From: Escherichia phage ECD7
DNA length: 64,000 bases
Reading direction: 5' to 3' (one strand)
Sequence record: NC_041936.1
Each line of letters begins with the position of its first letter. Positions within the stretch are counted from its first letter, which is position 1. Below the pieces are notes generated by a model, which was given only the letters and a program-made list of their open reading frames with translations, did no database searches and was not told where the DNA came from. Shown piece after piece: positions 1 to 38,272 of this stretch. The position numbers and the translations under genes were made by a program.

Positions 1-1434
1 TTAAAATTTAACATTCTTAACCAGTTTCATAAAGTCTTGTGCGCGTTTGTCGTTATGCAGAATACGATACCAGTTATCTACAATATCATACAGTAACGGG
101 CTATTCTCTTTAAACTTCGCACAAACTGCTTTAATTCGTTCGTTTGCTGCCGTGAATTTTTCGTCACAGATCTTTTTAGTTTCTTCGTCCATAATCCAAC
201 GAGTACGAAGGAGTAACTTGGAAACCTCTTTATTATAATGACGACCGTACAGTCTGTCAATAAATTCTGGAACACAGCGTTCTAGTTCATCGTCATGAAA
301 CAACATAGTGATCACACCCAGATATTCGCCATACCCCAGATGATTGGTCTTAACCTTCTTAGCCAGACCAGCCAGCTTACCGCGAACAAATTCTAGCGCA
401 CATTCCAATTGTTCGTCAACGAGATATTTTTGTGTCTCGTTTCGAGTAATAATATACTTTGTTACCCCGAAGTAGTCACGCGCCGTGTGTAATGTATTTT
501 CATTATAGATCGATTGACGGCTACGGCTTTCGAATGCATCACCTACGCGGAACATGTGCAAGCCTGATAACTCGCGAATCTCTGCCGCTTTCATGTGATG
601 GCTGGTTTTATGCCAACTGTCACCAATCTTTTCCATGATATACACGTTAGGCAGCTTGGGAGTAGCTTCACGTTGTGTACGCTCGGTCTTCTCCGGCTTA
701 ACTGCTTTAGCACGCAGATCATCGGCCTCTGATACCTTAATCACGGTCATTTCAGAATCATCATAATACTGTTTGATGTACTCGAAAGTCTCCATATGTT
801 TTTCGTTTTTCTGACGGAACACCAGTACCTTTTTATTGATGCCGTATTCCTGGACCATGCCGTTAAGAGTCAGTGCACGCAGTTTCGGTTTATCGGTGTC
901 ATCAATAAGACACGTAATATCTTCTTTATGCATCCATACAAAATGCGTAATGTTATATTGACTGCTAACGAAAGCAGGGCGCAATTTACTGATTGTGTGA
1001 CGAGTACGATACAGAGTATACACCTGACCTTCTACGTCATTTGGCGAATCTTTACCCGCATTCACAAACTTATTATAGATTGCTACCGGATCATCCCACT
1101 GTCCGATCTTACCCATCTTGCTAATAATATTGCGTTGCGTCGATGAATACTCGCTCATAAATTGCGCAAGTTTACGCTCTGTTTTAATGTTGGCGATCTT
1201 TTCTTTAACCTTTTCCAACATCATTTCATTGATTTCTGCAATGCGTTTTTCGATGTTCGCTTTAGTCTCAATTGACAAGTGAACTTCTTCACGCGATGGC
1301 ATCAGGTCCAGATCACCCAACTCAAAATTAATGTAAATGGTCTGGTGCTGGCGGTTTACAGCTTCTAACCATGTTCCGCGAACATATTCATACGGGATCG
1401 GATACTGGATCTTACCCATGATTGCATATACCAC
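1..1434 (-). CDS. rIIA: rIIA, C-terminal portion (same reading frame as 1498..2109; stop TAA at 1-3)
   Basis: Translation resembles T4 RIIA central/C-terminal region; track start is GTG at 1434 but frame is open up to the TAA at 1498-1500. Confidence 0.8.
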   Translation of the reverse strand: MVYAIMGKIQYPIPYEYVRGTWLEAVNRQHQTIYINFELGDLDLMPSREEVHLSIETKANIEKRIAEINEMMLEKVKEKIANIKTERKLAQFMSEYSSTQRNIISKMGKIGQWDDPVAIYNKFVNAGKDSPNDVEGQVYTLYRTRHTISKLRPAFVSSQYNITHFVWMHKEDITCLIDDTDKPKLRALTLNGMVQEYGINKKVLVFRQKNEKHMETFEYIKQYYDDSEMTVIKVSEADDLRAKAVKPEKTERTQREATPKLPNVYIMEKIGDSWHKTSHHMKAAEIRELSGLHMFRVGDAFESRSRQSIYNENTLHTARDYFGVTKYIITRNETQKYLVDEQLECALEFVRGKLAGLAKKVKTNHLGYGEYLGVITMLFHDDELERCVPEFIDRLYGRHYNKEVSKLLLRTRWIMDEETKKICDEKFTAANERIKAVCAKFKENSPLLYDIVDNWYRILHNDKRAQDFMKLVKNVKF

Positions 1435-1497
1435 ATACGCATCATTATCGCGACCATTACAAACATAATAATTATCAAAGCTAGGGAAATAATTAAT

Positions 1498-2109
1498 TTA
1501 GATTGCGTTGATATTAGGCTTATGTTCCCCAAAATGACGCAGTACAAACTGTGCTTCTCGATGCCATGTCTGAATGTCTTTTTCTTTCACCGGAATAGTG
1601 ATTTTCAGACCATTGTCTTCATAGGTCGGATCGTCGAAAATCTGCACCATTTTCGGCATAGAGTTTTGCACAAATGCCGTAAAGCCATAAGCGCGACCAT
1701 TGTAGTAGTTTACGATTGTAAAGGTGTCGGTGTAACTATAAGCAGACTTCGCACCCAAACCAAAAGATCCGATATAATCATTAGTTTGGTCTTTTGTTGA
1801 TTCAAAGTAAACCGTAAACAATTGTTCTAATTCTTTCTTAGACGGAATACCAGTACCATAATCACGCACAGAAAAATACGGTTCGATTGCAGTTGGTAAA
1901 TGAATATCAAACGGACGATCTAAGGTTCCTGCTTCTTTGTGAGTGTCGGTAGCATTGCACGAATACTCACGGACGCAAGCACGTTCACAATATTGATAAG
2001 TGTTCTTAGAAAGCACCATAAAAGCCTTGCTACTTGCTTTCAGTGAAAAATCAACCGCACCGCTCAGGTCACTGCCAAATACTTCTTCATTATCGATATG
2101 CATTTTCAT
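1498..2109 (-). CDS. rIIA: rIIA N-terminal GHKL-ATPase-like portion, ended by in-frame TAA at 1498-1500
   Basis: 203 aa with GSFGLGAKSAYSYTDTF region resembling RIIA N-terminus; ATG at 2107-2109. Confidence 0.8.
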   Translation of the reverse strand: MKMHIDNEEVFGSDLSGAVDFSLKASSKAFMVLSKNTYQYCERACVREYSCNATDTHKEAGTLDRPFDIHLPTAIEPYFSVRDYGTGIPSKKELEQLFTVYFESTKDQTNDYIGSFGLGAKSAYSYTDTFTIVNYYNGRAYGFTAFVQNSMPKMVQIFDDPTYEDNGLKITIPVKEKDIQTWHREAQFVLRHFGEHKPNINAI

Positions 2110-11237: not shown

Positions 11238-11801
11238 TCACTGTATATTTTTACTTCTCTGCTTTCCTATCCAGATCCGTCTAACTGTTTCCGCATTAAC
11301 ATCATATATTTTTGCGATCTTTGCCGCAGATCCGGTTCCTTTTAGAGTTTTGATTTCTTCAATCTGATCTTTGGTTAATTTAGCCCAATGGTGTGCATCA
11401 CCATAACACGAACTCAGACCGTGTGTCAATGCATGAATCTGATTTTCTGATTGTGTAACCCATTCAAGATTATATAGGTCATGGTTTCTTTTGTTTCCAT
11501 CGATATGATTAACAAACGGCAAATTGTTTACGTTTGGTATAAACGCTTCTGCTTTTGCTCTGTGTATGTATATCGATAGAGATTTAACCCTAGACCCTGA
11601 ACTAGTTTTATTACCGTAAGGATCTCTGATTCTTGCTACGGCGTATCCACCGCTTCTTCCGGCTACAGATTCTCTATAAATCTTTCCTGTTTTCTTGTTT
11701 CTAATGCGTCCATATGAGCTAACCTCGTAGCCTGGCATTTCGACGCCCATATAAACAAGGTCTTTCCATTCTTCTGGATGTTCATCACAATACCGTTTCA
11801 T
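11238..11801 (-). CDS. free-standing HNH homing endonuclease (AP2/NUMOD-like N-terminus, C-terminal HTH)
   Basis: HIDGNKRNHDLYNLEWVTQSEN HNH motif; inserted between 61 and 56. Confidence 0.8.
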   Translation of the reverse strand: MKRYCDEHPEEWKDLVYMGVEMPGYEVSSYGRIRNKKTGKIYRESVAGRSGGYAVARIRDPYGNKTSSGSRVKSLSIYIHRAKAEAFIPNVNNLPFVNHIDGNKRNHDLYNLEWVTQSENQIHALTHGLSSCYGDAHHWAKLTKDQIEEIKTLKGTGSAAKIAKIYDVNAETVRRIWIGKQRSKNIQ

Positions 11802-16548: not shown

Positions 16549-18025
16549 TTAAATGTCAAACAGGTCCGTAAGCGATGCCACCTTTTCATATTGCAGCTTT
16601 GCAGCCGTGGTAATGTTCTCCAGTGGTTTGACGAAAGTCTTATTAAACAACAAAGGCCAGTCTAACCACTTCAACACTTCTGATTCAATTTCTGGCGGAA
16701 TACGAGTACCAGACAACCAACCAAAACAGATTTCTCCAAACGGATTTCGATCTTTAAGCGGTACAATCATAACCTTCTCGCCTTCACGAATCGGATCTAG
16801 TCCGAATTTTCGAGCATTACGATTATAACACAATACACTCTTAACCGCATACGGACAACCCTTAATCGGATACCCGTTTGAATCGCTGTATTTCTGTAGG
16901 TTGTTTGCAGATGATACCGCAGCAACCTCAAGATAATCAAGTTTTCTAAACTCTTGCTCAAAAATACCGTAGTATTCCTGTAGCGATTCTTCCCCTTCCT
17001 GCAACATACGGCGAATACATTCTTTCAGTGATTTCTGACATGCTTTAGGGGTGGAGCTACGTTGCGTTTCCAAGCCCATGATTTTTAGCTTAGGTTCAGC
17101 AAAGCGCGTTCCTTCCATATCCCAAACATTAAGAGCATAACGCTTTTTACCAGTCCAGAATCCACCGATACCCGCAGATTTCAACGGAGGACCAGCAATT
17201 GCCTCACGGTCCATAAACATCAAGTGCTCATAGTTATTCATGTACTCGCATAACTCGCGATATCCCTTGTCGATAATAGGTTCCATTCGATGTTTACCGA
17301 AATTATCAAGGAAGTCAACAAGTTTTTCGGTATCGTCGAAACGGTCTTCCCCGCCAACCTTATCAACAACATTGTTAACCAGCACATAAACGGAGTCAGT
17401 ATCACAATAACGAACATATGCAAAATCAGTTGTTCCGCAAAGCTCGTTTAAGTATTCGTTAATCTTACGCTCAATCCACTGAATTGCAAGCTGACCAAAC
17501 AGTGTGATCGCACTAGCGTTACGGAGATCATAAAAACGGAATTTAGGATTCCCCAACGCACCATAAAGGGAGTTGATCAAAACTTTACGAGAAAGCTGGT
17601 TTGTATTGCACAAGATCGACTCGTCTTTACATTCTTCCAGCAATTTCTCTAAGGCATCTTTACTTAATTCAGAAAGCATCGATTTAAACGCTTCGTCAAA
17701 GTCGTGACGCACTTCAACGCTATAGCTAATGGTTCCCCCATAAACATGATTTTCATCGTGTAGAATCGCTTTACATAGTTCAGCATTGCGATCACATGCC
17801 AGCATCATATTTTTGTACTGCTTACGCTGATCAAATACCTTTTTAATCTCAATAGGTACGATACCATGAATATCTTTTCGATACATCCACCCGTTAGGCG
17901 AGCAAGAATACTCATCACTCGGACGTGGTGCAGTTTTATTGATATATTCGTGCATCGGTGCAGCATCAAAAGATCCAGCGATTGTTTCAGGCGAAATATT
18001 AACCTGACGGATGATTGATGGATAC
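16549..18025 (-). CDS. 43: DNA polymerase gp43, exon 2 (motif A YPS onward; palm/thumb)
   Basis: Frame open from 18025 (YPSIIRQVNISPET...); LINSLYGALGN, YCDTDS, KKRY motifs; stop at 16549-16551. Confidence 0.9.
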
Positions 18026-18165
18026 CATTATGTTCAGCGCGGTTCGCTACTCCCGCGCCCGTTCTCTTGCGAACTGCTACATGTCACCATGTAGATCAGA
18101 CTATATCACATTCTCATAGAGAATCCTGCCATTTCGAATCGCTTGATTCTACTCTACTCGGTTCG

Positions 18166-18990
18166 TTACCCTTTCGATAGTCGTTGAACAACTGCATCTT
18201 TAAGCTCATTTTGATCAAACGGTGTTCTCTTACAGTACCCGCTATAATTCTTGGCAAAAGGTTTCTTCTTACCAAAGATCTCTTTTCCTGAATTATGTGC
18301 TTCAACAAGAAAATTCACCATTTCATCAAATGTGAAACTTGTAAATTTAGCATAAGTTTCATTACGTTTTGACATTATTTTACTCATAACTTCCGGTCGT
18401 TTAGACGCTGAATTTTCGCGCTTCTCGCCAGCATTAAATGATACTAACTCACCGGAAACATATCTAGGATCATCACAACTAACTCTAAACCGATTTCCTT
18501 CCTTATCCTTAACGATAACAGTATTCTTTAGCTTTTCTGCCATAGAATCAAGACCTTTTCGTATAGTGTCCTCATCAGCCCCGAAATATTTCTTTCCGCT
18601 CATATCGGTTCTGGCTTTTCCGGTCTTGTTTTCGGATATTTTCAGTCTAACTTCCTCTCGCTTGGCTGGGTTATTGTCTCCAGCGAATGCATCTTTGGTT
18701 AACGCCTTCACTTTATCGTCATAAGATCCTCTAGAGATGAAAGCATATGCTCTCTTGCATTCACCGTTATTGAATATTAAGCACAATAACCGATGCGCCT
18801 CGACGTGGTCTTCAAACTTAAGCCTAACAAGATTCCATTTATCTAACCGATATTCAGGGAACATTGACTTCGGGCATATATGATGCACCTCGGAATATTC
18901 TTCACCCTGATACGGATTAGACACCAGTTTAATGTAGTCGTTTAATGCTTCCTCGTTATGTATTTCGTACTTTCTTAAAATGTCTTTCAT
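18166..18990 (-). CDS. intron-encoded HNH homing endonuclease
   Basis: HNH motif EVHHICPKSMFPEYRLDKWNLVRL...HVEAH; ATG at 18988-18990 preceded by GGAGG. Confidence 0.8.
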   Translation of the reverse strand: MKDILRKYEIHNEEALNDYIKLVSNPYQGEEYSEVHHICPKSMFPEYRLDKWNLVRLKFEDHVEAHRLLCLIFNNGECKRAYAFISRGSYDDKVKALTKDAFAGDNNPAKREEVRLKISENKTGKARTDMSGKKYFGADEDTIRKGLDSMAEKLKNTVIVKDKEGNRFRVSCDDPRYVSGELVSFNAGEKRENSASKRPEVMSKIMSKRNETYAKFTSFTFDEMVNFLVEAHNSGKEIFGKKKPFAKNYSGYCKRTPFDQNELKDAVVQRLSKG

Positions 18991-19035
18991 CTCGCGCCTC
19001 CAATGTATATCAATATTTATATACATTATAAGACA
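18991..19035 (-). promoter_or_regulatory. T4-type late promoter (TATAAATA) and RBS for the intron endonuclease
   Basis: Minus strand TATAAATA (plus 19024-19031) about 33 nt upstream of the HEG ATG. Confidence 0.5.
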
Positions 19036-19139
19036 CGTTAGCTCAAAATGCAACTGCTGCTGATTGTCTCCTTAGAGATTTCCCAGCAATTAAGCAGGTT
19101 ATTCGATCACTGTCACCAGTGAAAGCCCCATATCAGTTT

Positions 19140-20341
19140 AGGGAAGTAAGGTCAAAGCTCATCATCCAACGATAAGCATTAGGTACTGGCTCTTTTACGA
19201 ATGCGCCAGGATAAGTCTGCTTAGGCTGTATCTTGTTCTCTGGTACTACTTTACCCTCAGCTTTCAGAGATCCGAAGATAATAGCATCCCATACTTTCAT
19301 CGGGTTATAAACATGGTTAAATTTAATCTTTGCATAGAAACATAGACTATACACCAGATCGATAAATCCACGCTTTTTATCAATCGCCAGCACACGATCA
19401 ACGTCGCCGATGTTATAATCGATGTAAAGTTGATGATTGTCATCACGCAATTTCTTTAACGGACCATCATAATCAACCTTACCGATTCCTGTCTCATATT
19501 CAGCAACATAATCTAACGCATATGTTGGTTGAGTCGTAAAGCTAAATTTCTTGTACAGGTCAATATAATCAAGGCTTTCGATCCCCATGATCGTAAATGC
19601 TTCACGCTCGTTGCCAAAATCATCCTGTGAGATTCTGGATTTAATCTTACCGCACGGGCTTAGACGGTTAGCGGTTCTACTTCCGAACTTATTACTGATA
19701 CGTTTAATGATATATGGAATATCGAATGTTTCTGTGTTCCAGCCAGTGAAACCAACGGGTCGGTTTTCCTCAAAGAATCGGATGTATTCTAACAGCAATT
19801 CATCTTCTGTGTCATAGACGTTATAAACAACGCGCTCTACAATATCAGGTCGAAGAATAGACTTGCTTGCTTCCCAGATTTCACCGTTTTTTCCTTTCAA
19901 ATCAAATACAAAGAAACGATCATGTACGGAATCATAATGCGTAATTGCATCTATAGGATATTTCGCTTCTTCTGGTTTAGGAAATTCTGGGGCAGTGACC
20001 TCAATATCAACCCATGCTACACGGATTTTATTTCGGTCATATCGAATCTCTCCTTTATACGTATCGGACAGATAGGAGATGATAAAATCATCCATCCCTA
20101 GTGCCTCTTGCCCCATCTCCCCCATCTTTTTACGCCATTTGTTGGCCTCGTTCATAGATGGGAATTTTTTAGCAATGCAAGGCTTGCCGTAGATATCTTT
20201 ATAATTCGTAACCATACCAGGCGCGGCATGATGAAATAAAGTTGGCGTATATTCAACGTAACGCTCTTGTTCTTGTCCAGCATCATCAATATAACGCTCG
20301 TAGATCTTATCACCCACTCGCTCACATGACAGAAAATACAT
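19140..20341 (-). CDS. 43: DNA polymerase gp43, exon 1 (N-terminal and 3'-5' exonuclease domains to motif A)
   Basis: ATG 20339-20341 with AAGGAG SD; ERYIDDAGQ, FDIPYI, ends FDLTSL at splice site. Confidence 0.9.
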
Positions 20342-28247: not shown

Positions 28248-28289
28248 AGTCTCTTCCTCTCTTCGTTTTCGATGCTCTCACTATATCAC

Positions 28290-28316
28290 AGAAAAATAAA
28301 AAGGGAAACCCCCTTT
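28290..28316 (-). terminator. weak intrinsic terminator-like hairpin upstream of gene 47
   Basis: Minus: AAAGGG-loop-CCCUUU followed by U-rich run. Confidence 0.35.
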
Positions 28317-28338
28317 CAGAGTCTCCCTTATAAAGCCA

Positions 28339-28626
28339 TTACAGCATACTTAATACCGTTTGCCGTGTACTAATCCACATAGCAGAAAGCAGTTCTGGCG
28401 TGTGTGGCTGTTTGTAGATATCACGTAACTTTCCGATAGCGTAGATATACGCATCACGATTATCATCGATGATAGCTTGTTCAGCCCACCGCTTAAGGCG
28501 TGCAATCTCTCGCGAGTTCTTACGCAAGATCTTTTCCGCTTTCTTAGCGGCTTTAGCCTCTAGTTCTGCTTGTACTTTGTCTACTTCATTCACTGCAATC
28601 TGGTCATGCTGTTCATTGCAAGTCAT
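28339..28626 (-). CDS. hypothetical protein
   Basis: 95-aa ORF in the slot where T4 has alpha-gt. Confidence 0.4.
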   Translation of the reverse strand: MTCNEQHDQIAVNEVDKVQAELEAKAAKKAEKILRKNSREIARLKRWAEQAIIDDNRDAYIYAIGKLRDIYKQPHTPELLSAMWISTRQTVLSML

Positions 28627-28627
28627 A

Positions 28628-28861
28628 TTATTTTACCTCTGGGATATAATCAATTATTAAAGAAAATTCATCTTCTGATACATTATAGCTATGTGAGATT
28701 GTACCCGTAAAGACCTCAAGATCCGGTGATTTGATATTGCACGGATCGATAATCACCGGAACGCCGCAATCTCTCAAAAATAATTTGGCGAAATACGGCA
28801 CAAGGTCAGTTTCAAACTCTGCTTCTTCCAGCAAACGGGAAATGTTAATTTTCAATCTCAT
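28628..28861 (-). CDS. hypothetical protein
   Basis: 77-aa ORF. Confidence 0.4.
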
Positions 28862-33958: not shown

Positions 33959-34462
33959 TCAAATAATTTTCACTGGAATACTATTAACAATCTTGTATTG
34001 TACTTGATTGTCAGACCCCCGCCACGGCTTCTTCGTTGGCATATCTTTAATATAACGCCCATCGATGAACATGTCAACTGATTCTACAATTTTTCTTTGC
34101 TCATCATTCAATTGGTCAAGGGTATAACCGGACCATAGCCAAATATCTTTATTTGGCATCCATGATTTTACTTCATCGATGATCCGCTGTACACCCTTTA
34201 AATTGCGTTTATACAGTGGATCGCCACCTAAGAATGTTAGCCCCTGAATAAAATCAGGTCTAAGCAGATCCAGAATCAATCCCATTGTATCATCGGTGAA
34301 TGGTTCCCCGTTCTTAGGATTGAGTAGGCTAGCATTAAAGCAACCATCACATGCGTGTGAACATCCGGTAACGTAAAGGGAGACTCTCACTCCCTCACCG
34401 TTAACCATATCACAATCTTTAATATCGGCATAGCGTAGTTTGCCGTATGTATCAGAACTCAT
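33959..34462 (-). CDS. nrdG: anaerobic ribonucleotide reductase activating protein NrdG (radical SAM)
   Basis: CSHACDGC (CxxxCxxC) cluster; ATG at 34460-34462. Confidence 0.85.
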   Translation of the reverse strand: MSSDTYGKLRYADIKDCDMVNGEGVRVSLYVTGCSHACDGCFNASLLNPKNGEPFTDDTMGLILDLLRPDFIQGLTFLGGDPLYKRNLKGVQRIIDEVKSWMPNKDIWLWSGYTLDQLNDEQRKIVESVDMFIDGRYIKDMPTKKPWRGSDNQVQYKIVNSIPVKII

Positions 34463-34604
34463 ATTCAATTACCCCGAACTCGTTTACAATCTGCGCTTTA
34501 TAGTAACCACCGCGAGATGCTAATAGATAAGCTGGGCTTAGGTATTCGTATTCACGGATTTCTACTTGTGCGTTTTCAGTTTCCCAAATCAGTAAAGTCC
34601 ACAT
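34452..34604 (-). CDS. hypothetical small protein
   Basis: Internal ATG (MWTLLIWE...) after AGGAGA; track ORF 34452..34679 runs through the promoter. Confidence 0.3.
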   Translation of the reverse strand: MWTLLIWETENAQVEIREYEYLSPAYLLASRGGYYKAQIVNEFGVIEYEF

Positions 34605-34639
34605 ATTTGATTCTCCTGTAAAGTTGTATCTCGTCTTGA

Positions 34640-34676
34640 TGAATATAGTATAGGGGATCTCGCGATCCCCGTCAAG
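34640..34676 (-). promoter_or_regulatory. sigma70-type early promoter with 18-nt palindrome in spacer
   Basis: Minus: TTGACG-GGGATCGCGAGATCCCC-TATACT. Confidence 0.55.
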
Positions 34677-34679
34677 CAT

Positions 34680-35228
34680 TTATTTTAAATTTTTTCGAAT
34701 GTATTCAGACCATTCCTTCCCTGTCATTTCGGACCCGTTCTGGAAACTGAAATATTCATACGGCATCGAGTCAAGATAAAACAGGATCATACATCGCGCC
34801 ATATAATACCAATCACGATTAAAGTAAACTACGTTATCACCAGTACCATCAACCCCTTTATCATAACCATCGCGGGTACGGGCGACCCATTGAATAGTAT
34901 CATTTTTCTCGCGGATCGTAACAGGTTCCCAATATCCAGCACATCCAGCATGACCACACAAACAAGTCAGGAAATATTGACCTTTTGCTTTGTTGTCATC
35001 CCATTCACGATGGATTGGTTCGATCTCGTGAAACAGTGCTAAGCAATCATGATTATGCAACACTGGCTTACCATCAATCAATGCATGGAATGTATACAAA
35101 CGACCAGTAGACAAATAGCTATCCTCACGCTCAACCAGTTCAATAGCAATCTTTTTAGCTCGTTCTTTGTGTCGTTGTGCTTTACGCTTACGGTTTAATG
35201 ATTTCATATTCACCTCACACATTATCAA
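34680..35228 (-). CDS. hypothetical protein
   Basis: 182-aa ORF between nrdD and nrdG. Confidence 0.45.
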   Translation of the reverse strand: MIMCEVNMKSLNRKRKAQRHKERAKKIAIELVEREDSYLSTGRLYTFHALIDGKPVLHNHDCLALFHEIEPIHREWDDNKAKGQYFLTCLCGHAGCAGYWEPVTIREKNDTIQWVARTRDGYDKGVDGTGDNVVYFNRDWYYMARCMILFYLDSMPYEYFSFQNGSEMTGKEWSEYIRKNLK

Positions 35229-35770
35229 AGGTCGCGATATAGTACATTATGAAAATGAGAACTTGCATTACCAATATTGTAGATAATAAATTCTTCATCC
35301 GGCGCTTGCGCTACAAATTGAGTATGAGCAACCGCCACAACCTTAAAAATACGATCCGTGATCTTGTGTTTAATTTCGGCTCCTACTTCCATAGGAACAT
35401 ATTCATGTGTTTCTGTTTCAGTCGCAAAACAGCCATCTTCTTCATAAGCACGAACAAATCGATCGCAATCAGTACGCTTAACAAATTCAAGAGTATACAA
35501 TTCTCGTGAATTGTCGGTATAGACTAATACAGAATTATTCTGATAGCGAATCACATACAGGTTATTATCATCGTCAATTACGCAAAAGCTACGGATTTGT
35601 GTTCCTTCGCCTTTACTCCAGCAGATATTAACCACAGTTCCTCTAATAAAAAAACTTTCCTTTAAATTAAAACTAGCCAATGTGCTAGCGTGCATTTTAA
35701 CAACAACACCATCGCCAATTTCCAGTTTACGAAGTTTAACTTCTTTGCTCAGTACACAAAACATCATCAT
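35225..35770 (-). CDS. hypothetical protein
   Basis: 181-aa ORF. Confidence 0.45.
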   Translation of the reverse strand: MMMFCVLSKEVKLRKLEIGDGVVVKMHASTLASFNLKESFFIRGTVVNICWSKGEGTQIRSFCVIDDDNNLYVIRYQNNSVLVYTDNSRELYTLEFVKRTDCDRFVRAYEEDGCFATETETHEYVPMEVGAEIKHKITDRIFKVVAVAHTQFVAQAPDEEFIIYNIGNASSHFHNVLYRDL

Positions 35771-35789
35771 GTTGTCCTCTCGTTGTTTT

Positions 35790-35828
35790 CGATGTGAGCA
35801 TTATACATTAGCTAATCATGTTGTCAAC
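35790..35828 (-). promoter_or_regulatory. sigma70-type early promoter
   Basis: Minus: TTGACA-16nt-TATAAT directly after the nrdD terminator. Confidence 0.55.
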
Positions 35829-35835
35829 ACCCCAA

Positions 35836-35864
35836 AACGAAAAAGCCGACCCTTTCGGATCGGC
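35836..35864 (-). terminator. intrinsic terminator after nrdD
   Basis: Minus: GCCGAUCC-gaaag-GGUCGGC then UUUUUCGUUUU. Confidence 0.65.
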
Positions 35865-35870
35865 TGAAAT

Positions 35871-37733
35871 TTACATGTGCTTAACGCGGTTTACCATCTC
35901 GGAGTGTTTCCCGTGATTAAATGGACGCAGATCAACAGATCCAAGATATCCACTAACGCGACGGATAACATTCATCTTTTCCAGATTGTCATTGCCGCAA
36001 TCAGGACAAACAAAACCAGACTCGGTCGCTCTCATTTCCTTATTAGATCCGCATACATGACATACATCAGAAGGAGTATTAACACCGAAGTAGTGCAATT
36101 TATCCATTGCATAGTCTACTACAGTTTCAAGACCTTTCAGGTTGTTTTTCATGTCTGGGAACTCAACATAAGAGATCATGCCACCGGACGCCAGCCAGTG
36201 ATAATCTTTCTCAAAGTCGATTTTCTCAAATGGTGTGACTTTCCGGTCTACGTCAAGGTGGAATGAGTTGGTGTACCAGTCTTTATCGGTAGCACCCTTA
36301 ACAATACCAAATTGCTCTCTGTCCAGTCGATTAAATCGATAGCAAAGGCTCTCGGCTGGCGTACCGTAAAGACTAAACCCAAGTCCGGTTTCATCCTTCC
36401 ATTTTTCAGTATAATGACGCAAGATCTTAAGAATATGTTTACCGTATCGCTGCGCATCTTCCGAATCAAACGGATGAACACCAAACAGGACGCTCAATAC
36501 CTCATGTAAACCAATATATCCAAGAGAGATACTAGCGCGACCATCTTTCAGAACTTCCAAAATTTCATCGTTTTGATGAATACGGAAAAATGCACCTTCG
36601 GTATACAGCACCGGAGCAACATTGGCTTTAGCACCTTTTAAAGCGTCTACGCGACTCATGAGAGCATCAAAGCAAATAGGCAGACGATTAGCTAGCTCTT
36701 GTTCGAATAGCTCAATTCTGCGCATTACAGACGCTTTACCAGCACGACGCGCGGCAATAAGAGCAATACGCGGAAGATTCAGAGTCACAACACCCAAGTT
36801 ATTGCGTCCGTCTAATACTTCCTCGCCTTTCTCATTATGCCACACACCCAGGAAGCTACGACAACCCATCGGGCTAACCGGAACACTAGATCCAGTGATA
36901 CTACGGTTATTCTTCGCAGAGATATAATCAGGGTAAAGACGCTTACTAGAACATTCCAATGCAAGTTGCTTAATGTCGTAGTTCGGATCTTCCGGTTTAA
37001 GGTTTAATCCTTCTTCTAAGAACATCACCAGCTTAGGAAACACCGGAGTGATACCATCTTTACCTAAACCTTTAGTTCGAACGTTCAGGATCGCTTTCTG
37101 AATCAGTTTTTCTTCCCAGCTAGTACCCATACCAAAGGTTAAAGTCACAAAAGGCGTTTGACCGTTGGTGGAGAACAAAGTGTTGATTTCATATTCCAAC
37201 GCTTGATACCCGTCTAAAGTTTCTTTTTCTGTCTTCTCTTGTGCATAGAGAGTATCAGCTTTGATTCCGTAGGTTTCGGCATCAGCAAGGTGTTTATGAT
37301 ATGTTTTCTCAACATACGGTGCTAACACCTGATCGATGTTTGCGATTGTGGTCCCGCCATATTGATGACTTGCCACCTGTGCGATAATTTGAGCGGTTAC
37401 AGCACAAGCAACGCCGATCGATTTCGGACTTTCGATTTGTGCGCTACCCAATTTAAAACCATTCTCTAACATGTCTTTGAGATTAACAAGACAGCAGTTA
37501 GTAAACGGCATAGCGGGTGCATAATCCATATCATGATAATGAATATCACCGTCTACATGCGCTTTATAGATGTGCTCAGGTAACACGGTTTTAGCAATCT
37601 GTTTAGACACAGCACCAGCAATCAGATCTCGACGTGTCGGGAATGTTCGCGCGTCTTTGTTCGCGTTCTCTTTGCTTACTTCGTTTTCTTTACCCGTTGC
37701 GATCTCTGTAATGTCTTTGATTAGTTTTTCCAT
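35871..37733 (-). CDS. nrdD: anaerobic ribonucleoside-triphosphate reductase NrdD (glycyl radical enzyme), uninterrupted
   Basis: 620 aa; C-terminal Cys cluster CHVCG...CPDCG and glycyl-radical region; no intron. Confidence 0.93.
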   Translation of the reverse strand: MEKLIKDITEIATGKENEVSKENANKDARTFPTRRDLIAGAVSKQIAKTVLPEHIYKAHVDGDIHYHDMDYAPAMPFTNCCLVNLKDMLENGFKLGSAQIESPKSIGVACAVTAQIIAQVASHQYGGTTIANIDQVLAPYVEKTYHKHLADAETYGIKADTLYAQEKTEKETLDGYQALEYEINTLFSTNGQTPFVTLTFGMGTSWEEKLIQKAILNVRTKGLGKDGITPVFPKLVMFLEEGLNLKPEDPNYDIKQLALECSSKRLYPDYISAKNNRSITGSSVPVSPMGCRSFLGVWHNEKGEEVLDGRNNLGVVTLNLPRIALIAARRAGKASVMRRIELFEQELANRLPICFDALMSRVDALKGAKANVAPVLYTEGAFFRIHQNDEILEVLKDGRASISLGYIGLHEVLSVLFGVHPFDSEDAQRYGKHILKILRHYTEKWKDETGLGFSLYGTPAESLCYRFNRLDREQFGIVKGATDKDWYTNSFHLDVDRKVTPFEKIDFEKDYHWLASGGMISYVEFPDMKNNLKGLETVVDYAMDKLHYFGVNTPSDVCHVCGSNKEMRATESGFVCPDCGNDNLEKMNVIRRVSGYLGSVDLRPFNHGKHSEMVNRVKHM

Positions 37734-37777
37734 TGTATCACCTATGAAAAAGCGGGATTTCTCCCGCTCGTTGATAG

Positions 37778-38272
37778 TTATTTTACCAGTTCTGCTAATT
37801 CTTTTTCCGCCGCTTCCAGTTCAGCTTTCAGTTGTTTGATCTCTTGTCGCTTCTTATTAGCGGCTTCCTGCTTACTATTTCGGATAACCTGATCTAGATA
37901 CAACTCCCAATCCTGAATATTTTTGATAATGTAACCGTCAACATTAATTGGTCGGAGATTCAGTACAGCTTCCAGTTTAGTTGGAAAAACTTTAATTGCT
38001 GGGGTGAAGTATTCATATTCGTTATCTTCAAACCAATAACCTAGACTTGCATTATCAATACGAAGACGAAGTTCAAGATCAAGGTCTTTATCTTCGGTGT
38101 ATAGGTCTTTTACACACCCCATAGAATTAACAACAACTTTAAAACGAATTTTATCTACACCACCAAACACATCAGTAAGGATACCAGCAATTGAGCTATT
38201 AGCGCAAGATTGGTCGCTGAATGCGTCAAGGTTTTCTTTAGTTACAGTATACCAAACATCTTGTACCCACAT
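37778..38272 (-). CDS. hypothetical protein
   Basis: 164-aa ORF with C-terminal coiled coil. Confidence 0.45.
   Translation of the reverse strand: MWVQDVWYTVTKENLDAFSDQSCANSSIAGILTDVFGGVDKIRFKVVVNSMGCVKDLYTEDKDLDLELRLRIDNASLGYWFEDNEYEYFTPAIKVFPTKLEAVLNLRPINVDGYIIKNIQDWELYLDQVIRNSKQEAANKKRQEIKQLKAELEAAEKELAELVK

Follow-up and report, generated by a model that had tools for sequence, protein, structure and literature searches.

The three introns of bacteriophage T4 are variably present in its close T-even relatives, which is where the suspicion of their mobility arose (PMC2988022). They vary among the T-even phages and are confined to that cluster (PMC2988022, PMC2993671), and no transfer of T4 introns between phage clusters has been seen (PMC2993671). 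The T4 nrdD (sunY) intron is a selfish mobile element, rare even among the close T-even phages through which it spreads by I-TevII-driven homing; this requires that I-TevII cleaves and that co-infecting genomes then undergo homologous recombination. Petrov et al. (2010; PMC2993671) described in gene 43 of phage JSE a putative group I intron that holds the truncated relic of an endonuclease, and nrdD of phage RB49 is annotated as a single CDS. A literature search on introns under the genus name Krischvirus found nothing. The present study concerns a window of 64,000 nt, the whole stretch of DNA that was analysed, from Escherichia phage ECD7 (NC_041936.1), with the features of interest collected in Table 1. 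We hold it to be nearly certain that ECD7 has an intact, intron-free nrdD, that the T4 sunY intron never entered Krischvirus, and that the intron in gene 43 is a separate one; no sequence evidence contradicts this joint reading.

Table 1 Features of the nrdD and gene 43 loci in the ECD7 window
Feature	Position	Strand	Remarks
nrdD, class III anaerobic ribonucleoside-triphosphate reductase large subunit	35871..37733	-	ATG start, single 620-aa ORF
Counterpart of the T4 nrdD (sunY) intron site, in codon Tyr181	37192..37193	-	codon-level alignment; T4 junction GAGT/ATGAAG; no insertion
Homolog of the 30-bp T4 exon junction	37173..37202	-	22/30 identical (GCGTTGGAATATGAAATCAACACTTTGTTC)
Glycyl-radical motif RRVSGYLG, residues 591-598, Gly595	35940..35963	-	aligned to T4 RRTCGYLG
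nrdG, radical-SAM activase of NrdD	33959..34468	-	Fer4_12, E 2.4e-43; RB49 ortholog annotated nrdG
Gene 43 (PolB DNA polymerase) exon 1	19140..20341	-	ends ...GAC CTT ACT TCC CT
Gene 43 group I intron (predicted), 1,114 nt	18026..19139	-	RB49 alignment; excision restores gp43
Gene 43 exon 2	16549..18025	-	starts G TAT CCA TCA
Intron-encoded HNH homing endonuclease ORF, 274 aa	18166..18990	-	ATG after GGAGG; P6 region

The length and score of the ECD7 nrdD ORF are far beyond chance. Residues 22-619 match the NRDD Pfam model from end to end (positions 1-562 of 562) in one stretch, with an E-value of 5.4e-175 and 583.7 bits (cut-off 26.2), and further Pfam matches were obtained to Gly_radical (residues 496-598, E 5e-23) and to the A2L zinc ribbon. 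The nearest solved structure is that of T4 NrdD (1h78, E 2.5e-253, residues 15-619). Cys80 and Cys291 align to two T4 NrdD cysteines, Asn312 is also conserved, and four zinc-ribbon cysteines are found in CHVCGS at 558 and CPDCG at 576; the T4 residue aligned to Gly595 is presumably the radical Gly580. The catalytic cysteine, asparagine, radical glycine and zinc-ribbon roles of these residues are assumed here from the T4 NrdD literature. On this basis ECD7 nrdD is predicted to encode NrdD (PF13597), a class III ribonucleotide reductase, in complete form. The nrdG gene follows 1.4 kb downstream in the same orientation, and nrdD would be an ordinary intact glycyl-radical enzyme gene, expressed together with that of its activase. 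The interval between the two (34452..35770, minus strand) holds three small ORFs, namely a DUF7170 protein, phrog_8242 and phrog_14838, in the place taken in T4 by mobC, a homing endonuclease gene. Readings of nrdD as an intein-bearing gene, a pseudogene or a frameshifted gene were ruled out by the full-length single-frame NRDD match.

In T4 (NC_000866) nrdD is a two-piece CDS across 2851 nt with I-TevII encoded inside. The 1033-nt intron interrupts codon Tyr180, with the junction GCTTATGAGT/ATGAAGTG; GCTTATGAGT/ATGAAGTGAACACG is the sole T4 nrdD junction that is both in frame and in keeping with the group I rules applied to it (exon end U, intron end G). At the site, spliced T4 reads GAG TAT GAA GTG AAC ACG TTA TTC (EYEVNTLF), and ECD7 reads straight through in frame as GAA TAT GAA ATC AAC ACT TTG TTC (EYEINTLF). 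The protein target EYE(V/I)NTLFS is conserved, being EYEINTLFS in ECD7 and EYEVNTLFS in T4. When ECD7 NrdD was compared with T4 DNA by tblastn, residues 22-180 matched T4 nt 61-537 (exon 1) and residues 182-619 matched T4 nt 1574-2845 (exon 2) in a different frame; the split falls in the T4 gene and not in that of ECD7, with T4 exon 2 displaced by 1033 nt. A global alignment with the spliced T4 protein runs end to end with 379 identities (61% over 605 aa). The claim of an earlier note that the 620-aa ORF is continuous and free of introns is borne out by this colinearity with spliced T4 NrdD and by a permissive Rfam scan without an RF00028 match, and the alignment with the T4 exons around the intron site, which the note had suggested as a check, has ECD7 continuous across 37193/37192.

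ECD7 is an RB49-like coliphage belonging to Krischvirus, and the same arrangement is found in the closest relatives. The 2.8 kb around nrdD are 97.6-98.4% identical to the corresponding region of RB49, Delraymugoa, kvi, JEP8, GEC-3S and other Krischvirus phages, the region is colinear as one stretch in 56 of 57 matching related records and, among the matches listed, 25 records span the same length as ECD7. An intron-free nrdD has been on record for RB49 since its genome was published; the observation in ECD7 is correct, ordinary and already known.

Beyond the genus, NrdD homologs were detected by tblastn in 2,911 of 50,697 phage records, 2,821 of them colinear with ECD7 NrdD in one place. The T4 nrdD intron sequence is present in 25 phage records, including T4 isolates, T4T, RB55, RB59, PST, fPS-2, G8, U5 and a few others. 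A second intron lineage occupies the identical T4 site in SYGD1, JK45, F2, IME537 and others, with introns ~55-70% identical to that of T4 and flanking exons mostly 90-99% identical; it was recovered by blastn in 'distant' mode, as megablast with the T4 intron undercounts. The SYGD1 intron spans 1027..2071 of the SYGD1 locus and its core scores 74 bits against RF00028. Together the two lineages account for ~69 of the 2,911 NrdD-encoding records (~2%), all of T-even types. An intron-free nrdD is the normal phage state (~98% of NrdD-encoding records) and T4 is the rare exception; the surprise that the earlier note implied at finding nrdD uninterrupted is not warranted. Two further observations concern other phages: in UAB_Phi87 (Felixounavirus) nrdD is split at ~1347..2088 of its locus by a gap that holds a 'homing endonuclease' ORF, at a position equivalent to ECD7 residues 290/291, beside the catalytic Cys291 and different from the T4 site, and an HNH endonuclease gene lies beside nrdD in some Vibrio phage records. 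Because of this split and these neighbours, nrdD looks like a recurrent target of mobile elements.

Gene 43 of RB49 is one 2679-nt CDS; no ORF of this length exists in the ECD7 window, where gene 43 consists of an N-terminal piece, the 274-aa ORF and a C-terminal piece. Excision of 18026..19139 restores the PolB motif A DLTSLYPS and yields a spliced gp43 identical to that of RB49 at 891 of 892 residues. The limits were set by eye and confirmed by translating the spliced sequence, a MAFFT global alignment having misplaced the upstream exon. The 5' exon ends in ...CCCU (U) and the insert in ...AAUG (G). Intron nt 6-14, GAUAUGGGG (guide GAUAU-GGGG), can pair contiguously with both exon ends, forming P10 with GUAUC of exon 2 and P1 with CCCU of exon 1, with a U-G wobble at the splice site. 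The RF00028 model matches the 3' half of the ECD7 insert at 32.8 bits (E 3.4e-6; gathering score 50), a match that takes in GUUCAACGACUA and GAUAUAGUC, and aligns end to end with the ORF-deleted JSE allele at 42.9 bits (E 1.9e-9; gathering score 50), with the helices of JSE in the correct order (P1, P2, P3, P4, P5, P6 with the ORF remnant, P7, P3', P8, P7', P9). In ECD7 the RF00028 core is interrupted by the ORF, which lies in P6, and the match is visible in permissive mode only. From the combined evidence the insert is by a wide margin best read as a putative group I intron. The earlier note had placed an intron in gene 43 of this genome and held that the distribution of introns differs from that in T4; excision, the U/G ends, P1/P10 pairing and the RF00028 match agree with the predicted intron, and nrdD is without one. 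Such a pattern, unlike that of T4, would be expected for independently acquired selfish elements.

Two alternatives to the account of nrdD were weighed. ECD7 NrdD is 15 aa longer than the T4 protein, through in-frame extras of 1, 1, 4 and 9 aa and one N-terminal residue, and these small additions would be the place for an in-frame cryptic small intron or intein, which we judge vanishingly improbable. The end-to-end alignment contains no insert of more than 9 aa (27 nt) without a T4 counterpart. A group I intron takes up at least ~200 nt and an intein at least ~130 aa. The small hidden intron that, according to the earlier note, an alignment might reveal is excluded, because none of the extra segments exceeds 9 aa and the longest one is in frame, and 27 nt are far too short for a self-splicing intron, or for an intein; moreover, the NRDD model is matched over 1-562 of 562 in a single stretch and RB49 nrdD is equally long. 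The permissive scan of 35700..37900 returned no RF00028 match at E<=1, with the T4 and SYGD1 nrdD introns as positive controls at 105 and 74 bits, respectively. I-TevII (GIY-YIG) is absent from ECD7 nrdD, and the gene holds NrdD coding sequence alone. At gathering thresholds Rfam gave no match over the whole window, despite the gene 43 intron, which is seen in permissive mode only. Such nulls are unreliable for ORF-bearing phage introns (the SYGD1 nrdD intron, at 74 bits in permissive mode, was missed) and are no evidence against introns, because fast filters and an ORF-split core hide real ones; the negative result for nrdD therefore rests on the colinearity of the ORF and the permissive scan. 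The second alternative, that a T4-type nrdD intron was once present in the Krischvirus lineage and then precisely lost, appears highly unlikely. In its favour, mobile group I introns are known to be lost precisely, the protein is conserved in sequence around the site, and 22 of 30 nt of the sequence that we take to be the I-TevII homing site, the 30-bp T4 spliced junction, are kept. Against a loss stand the 56 of 57 colinear Krischvirus records, with the 25 listed matching ECD7 in length, and the restriction of both nrdD intron lineages to T-even-type phages. A comparison with RB49 found no cluster of substitutions at the nrdD intron site of the kind that would suggest past intron traffic; the site has 4 substitutions per 100 nt where the background is 0-5, unlike gene 43. 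The literature, moreover, records no transfer between clusters (PMC2993671). Absence of the intron from the sequenced relatives suggests instead that the Krischvirus lineage never acquired it. Around the site ECD7 shares with T4 22 of 30 nt of the junction and 48 of 75 nt of flanking exon, and because so little is shared, I-TevII cleavage and recombination would be expected to be inefficient in Krischvirus.

For gene 43, the interruption could be non-splicing, with a free-standing HNH gene dividing the polymerase into two subunits in the manner of nrdA/mobE of Aeh1 or 43A/43B of Aeromonas phages 25 and 44RR. This would fit RF00028 scores of 32.8 and 42.9 bits, both under the gathering score of 50, and the two 'DNA polymerase' CDSs in GenBank records, and a split gp43 has precedent (PMC2988022). 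We nevertheless regard it as quite unlikely, given that the break falls inside motif A (DLTSL/YPS) and that the first 23 codons of exon 2 contain no start codon. Further points against it are the U at the end of exon 1 and the G at the end of the insert, the guide GAUAU-GGGG that pairs with both exon ends, and the correctly ordered core elements GUUCAACGACUA and GAUAUAGUC. The JSE allele, too, was taken by Petrov et al. for a putative group I intron (PMC2993671).

The ORF within the predicted gene 43 intron was identified by PHROGs as an HNH endonuclease (phrog_12434, full length, E 6e-131) and a homing endonuclease (phrog_655, E 2.5e-19); Pfam gave only a weak NUMOD3 hint for this ORF. The full-length intron occurs in 10 of 57 related records, with 100% identity in MIZ4 and MIZ5, and is absent from RB49, Phi1 and GEC-3S, making it polymorphic within the genus. 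RB49 gene 43 reads GACTTAACAAGTCTGTATCC at the insertion region. Over the 100 nt of exon 1 upstream of the intron (19140..19240, minus strand) ECD7 differs from RB49 by 17 substitutions, while the rest of the gene has ~1.8 per 100 nt. The 17 are silent without exception, the sole amino-acid difference between the two gp43 proteins being at residue 158, and the tract looks like co-conversion of donor exon sequence. These exon 1 substitutions create the CCCU that pairs with the GGGG guide of the intron. They are predicted to protect the homing site from cleavage and to allow P1 pairing there, the latter because AAGUCU of RB49 could not pair with the guide. We give even chances to a combined scenario in which the JSE relic would derive from the ECD7 intron, still intact and mobile today, the HNH enzyme of the latter would cut gene 43 of intron-less Krischvirus at motif A and spread through homing, the silent tract would be a trace of homing, and the T-even nrdD intron would be barred by divergence of the homing site and exons and not by lack of contact. 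The intact intron with its endonuclease is the sole item of modest interest here, and the nrdD result matters little: the ORF is a candidate new intron-encoded homing enzyme aimed at a polymerase active-site motif, and the presence/absence polymorphism is usable for studying homing in non-T-even phages.

As regards annotation, ECD7 nrdD should be given as one CDS and gene 43 as a joined CDS, its intron and the HNH endonuclease encoded there being marked; GenBank records usually list intron-bearing gene 43 as two 'DNA polymerase' CDSs and a hypothetical protein. Elsewhere in the window, a 187-aa free-standing HNH endonuclease ORF (11238..11801, minus strand; phrog_59, E 1e-37) is situated between gene 61 and dc2, a place taken in RB49 by small hypothetical ORFs only, and it accounts for most of a 577-nt difference in size from RB49. 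Conversely, the RB49 HNH-AP2 endonuclease gene (RB49p040, 555 nt) is apparently missing from ECD7 at ~28250..28840, between genes 47 and 55, the interval over which the coordinate offset between the two genomes falls from 1883 to 1314. Homing endonuclease content therefore appears to differ between close relatives.

Set beside the described systems, T4 nrdD has a 1033-nt group I intron with I-TevII, mobC alongside and nrdG nearby, whereas ECD7 is without the intron, I-TevII or mobC. The two proteins (T4 NrdD, PDB 1H78/1H79/1HK8) have 61% full-length identity and share the catalytic cysteines, the asparagine, the radical glycine and the zinc ribbon. RB49 nrdD (NP_891627, NC_005066 34525..36387) has 1863 nt like that of ECD7 and 98.3% nucleotide identity to it; 32 point substitutions are the only difference, and the flanking genes and unbroken structure are held in common. 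The gene 43 intron of JSE has the same insertion site as that of ECD7, shares the flanking exon sequence CCTTACTTCCCT and is 99% identical in the parts retained, but it carries an internal deletion and a truncated endonuclease relic where ECD7 has a complete 274-aa HNH ORF. Judged by these sequences, the predicted ECD7 intron represents, at full length, the intron of which JSE keeps a relic.
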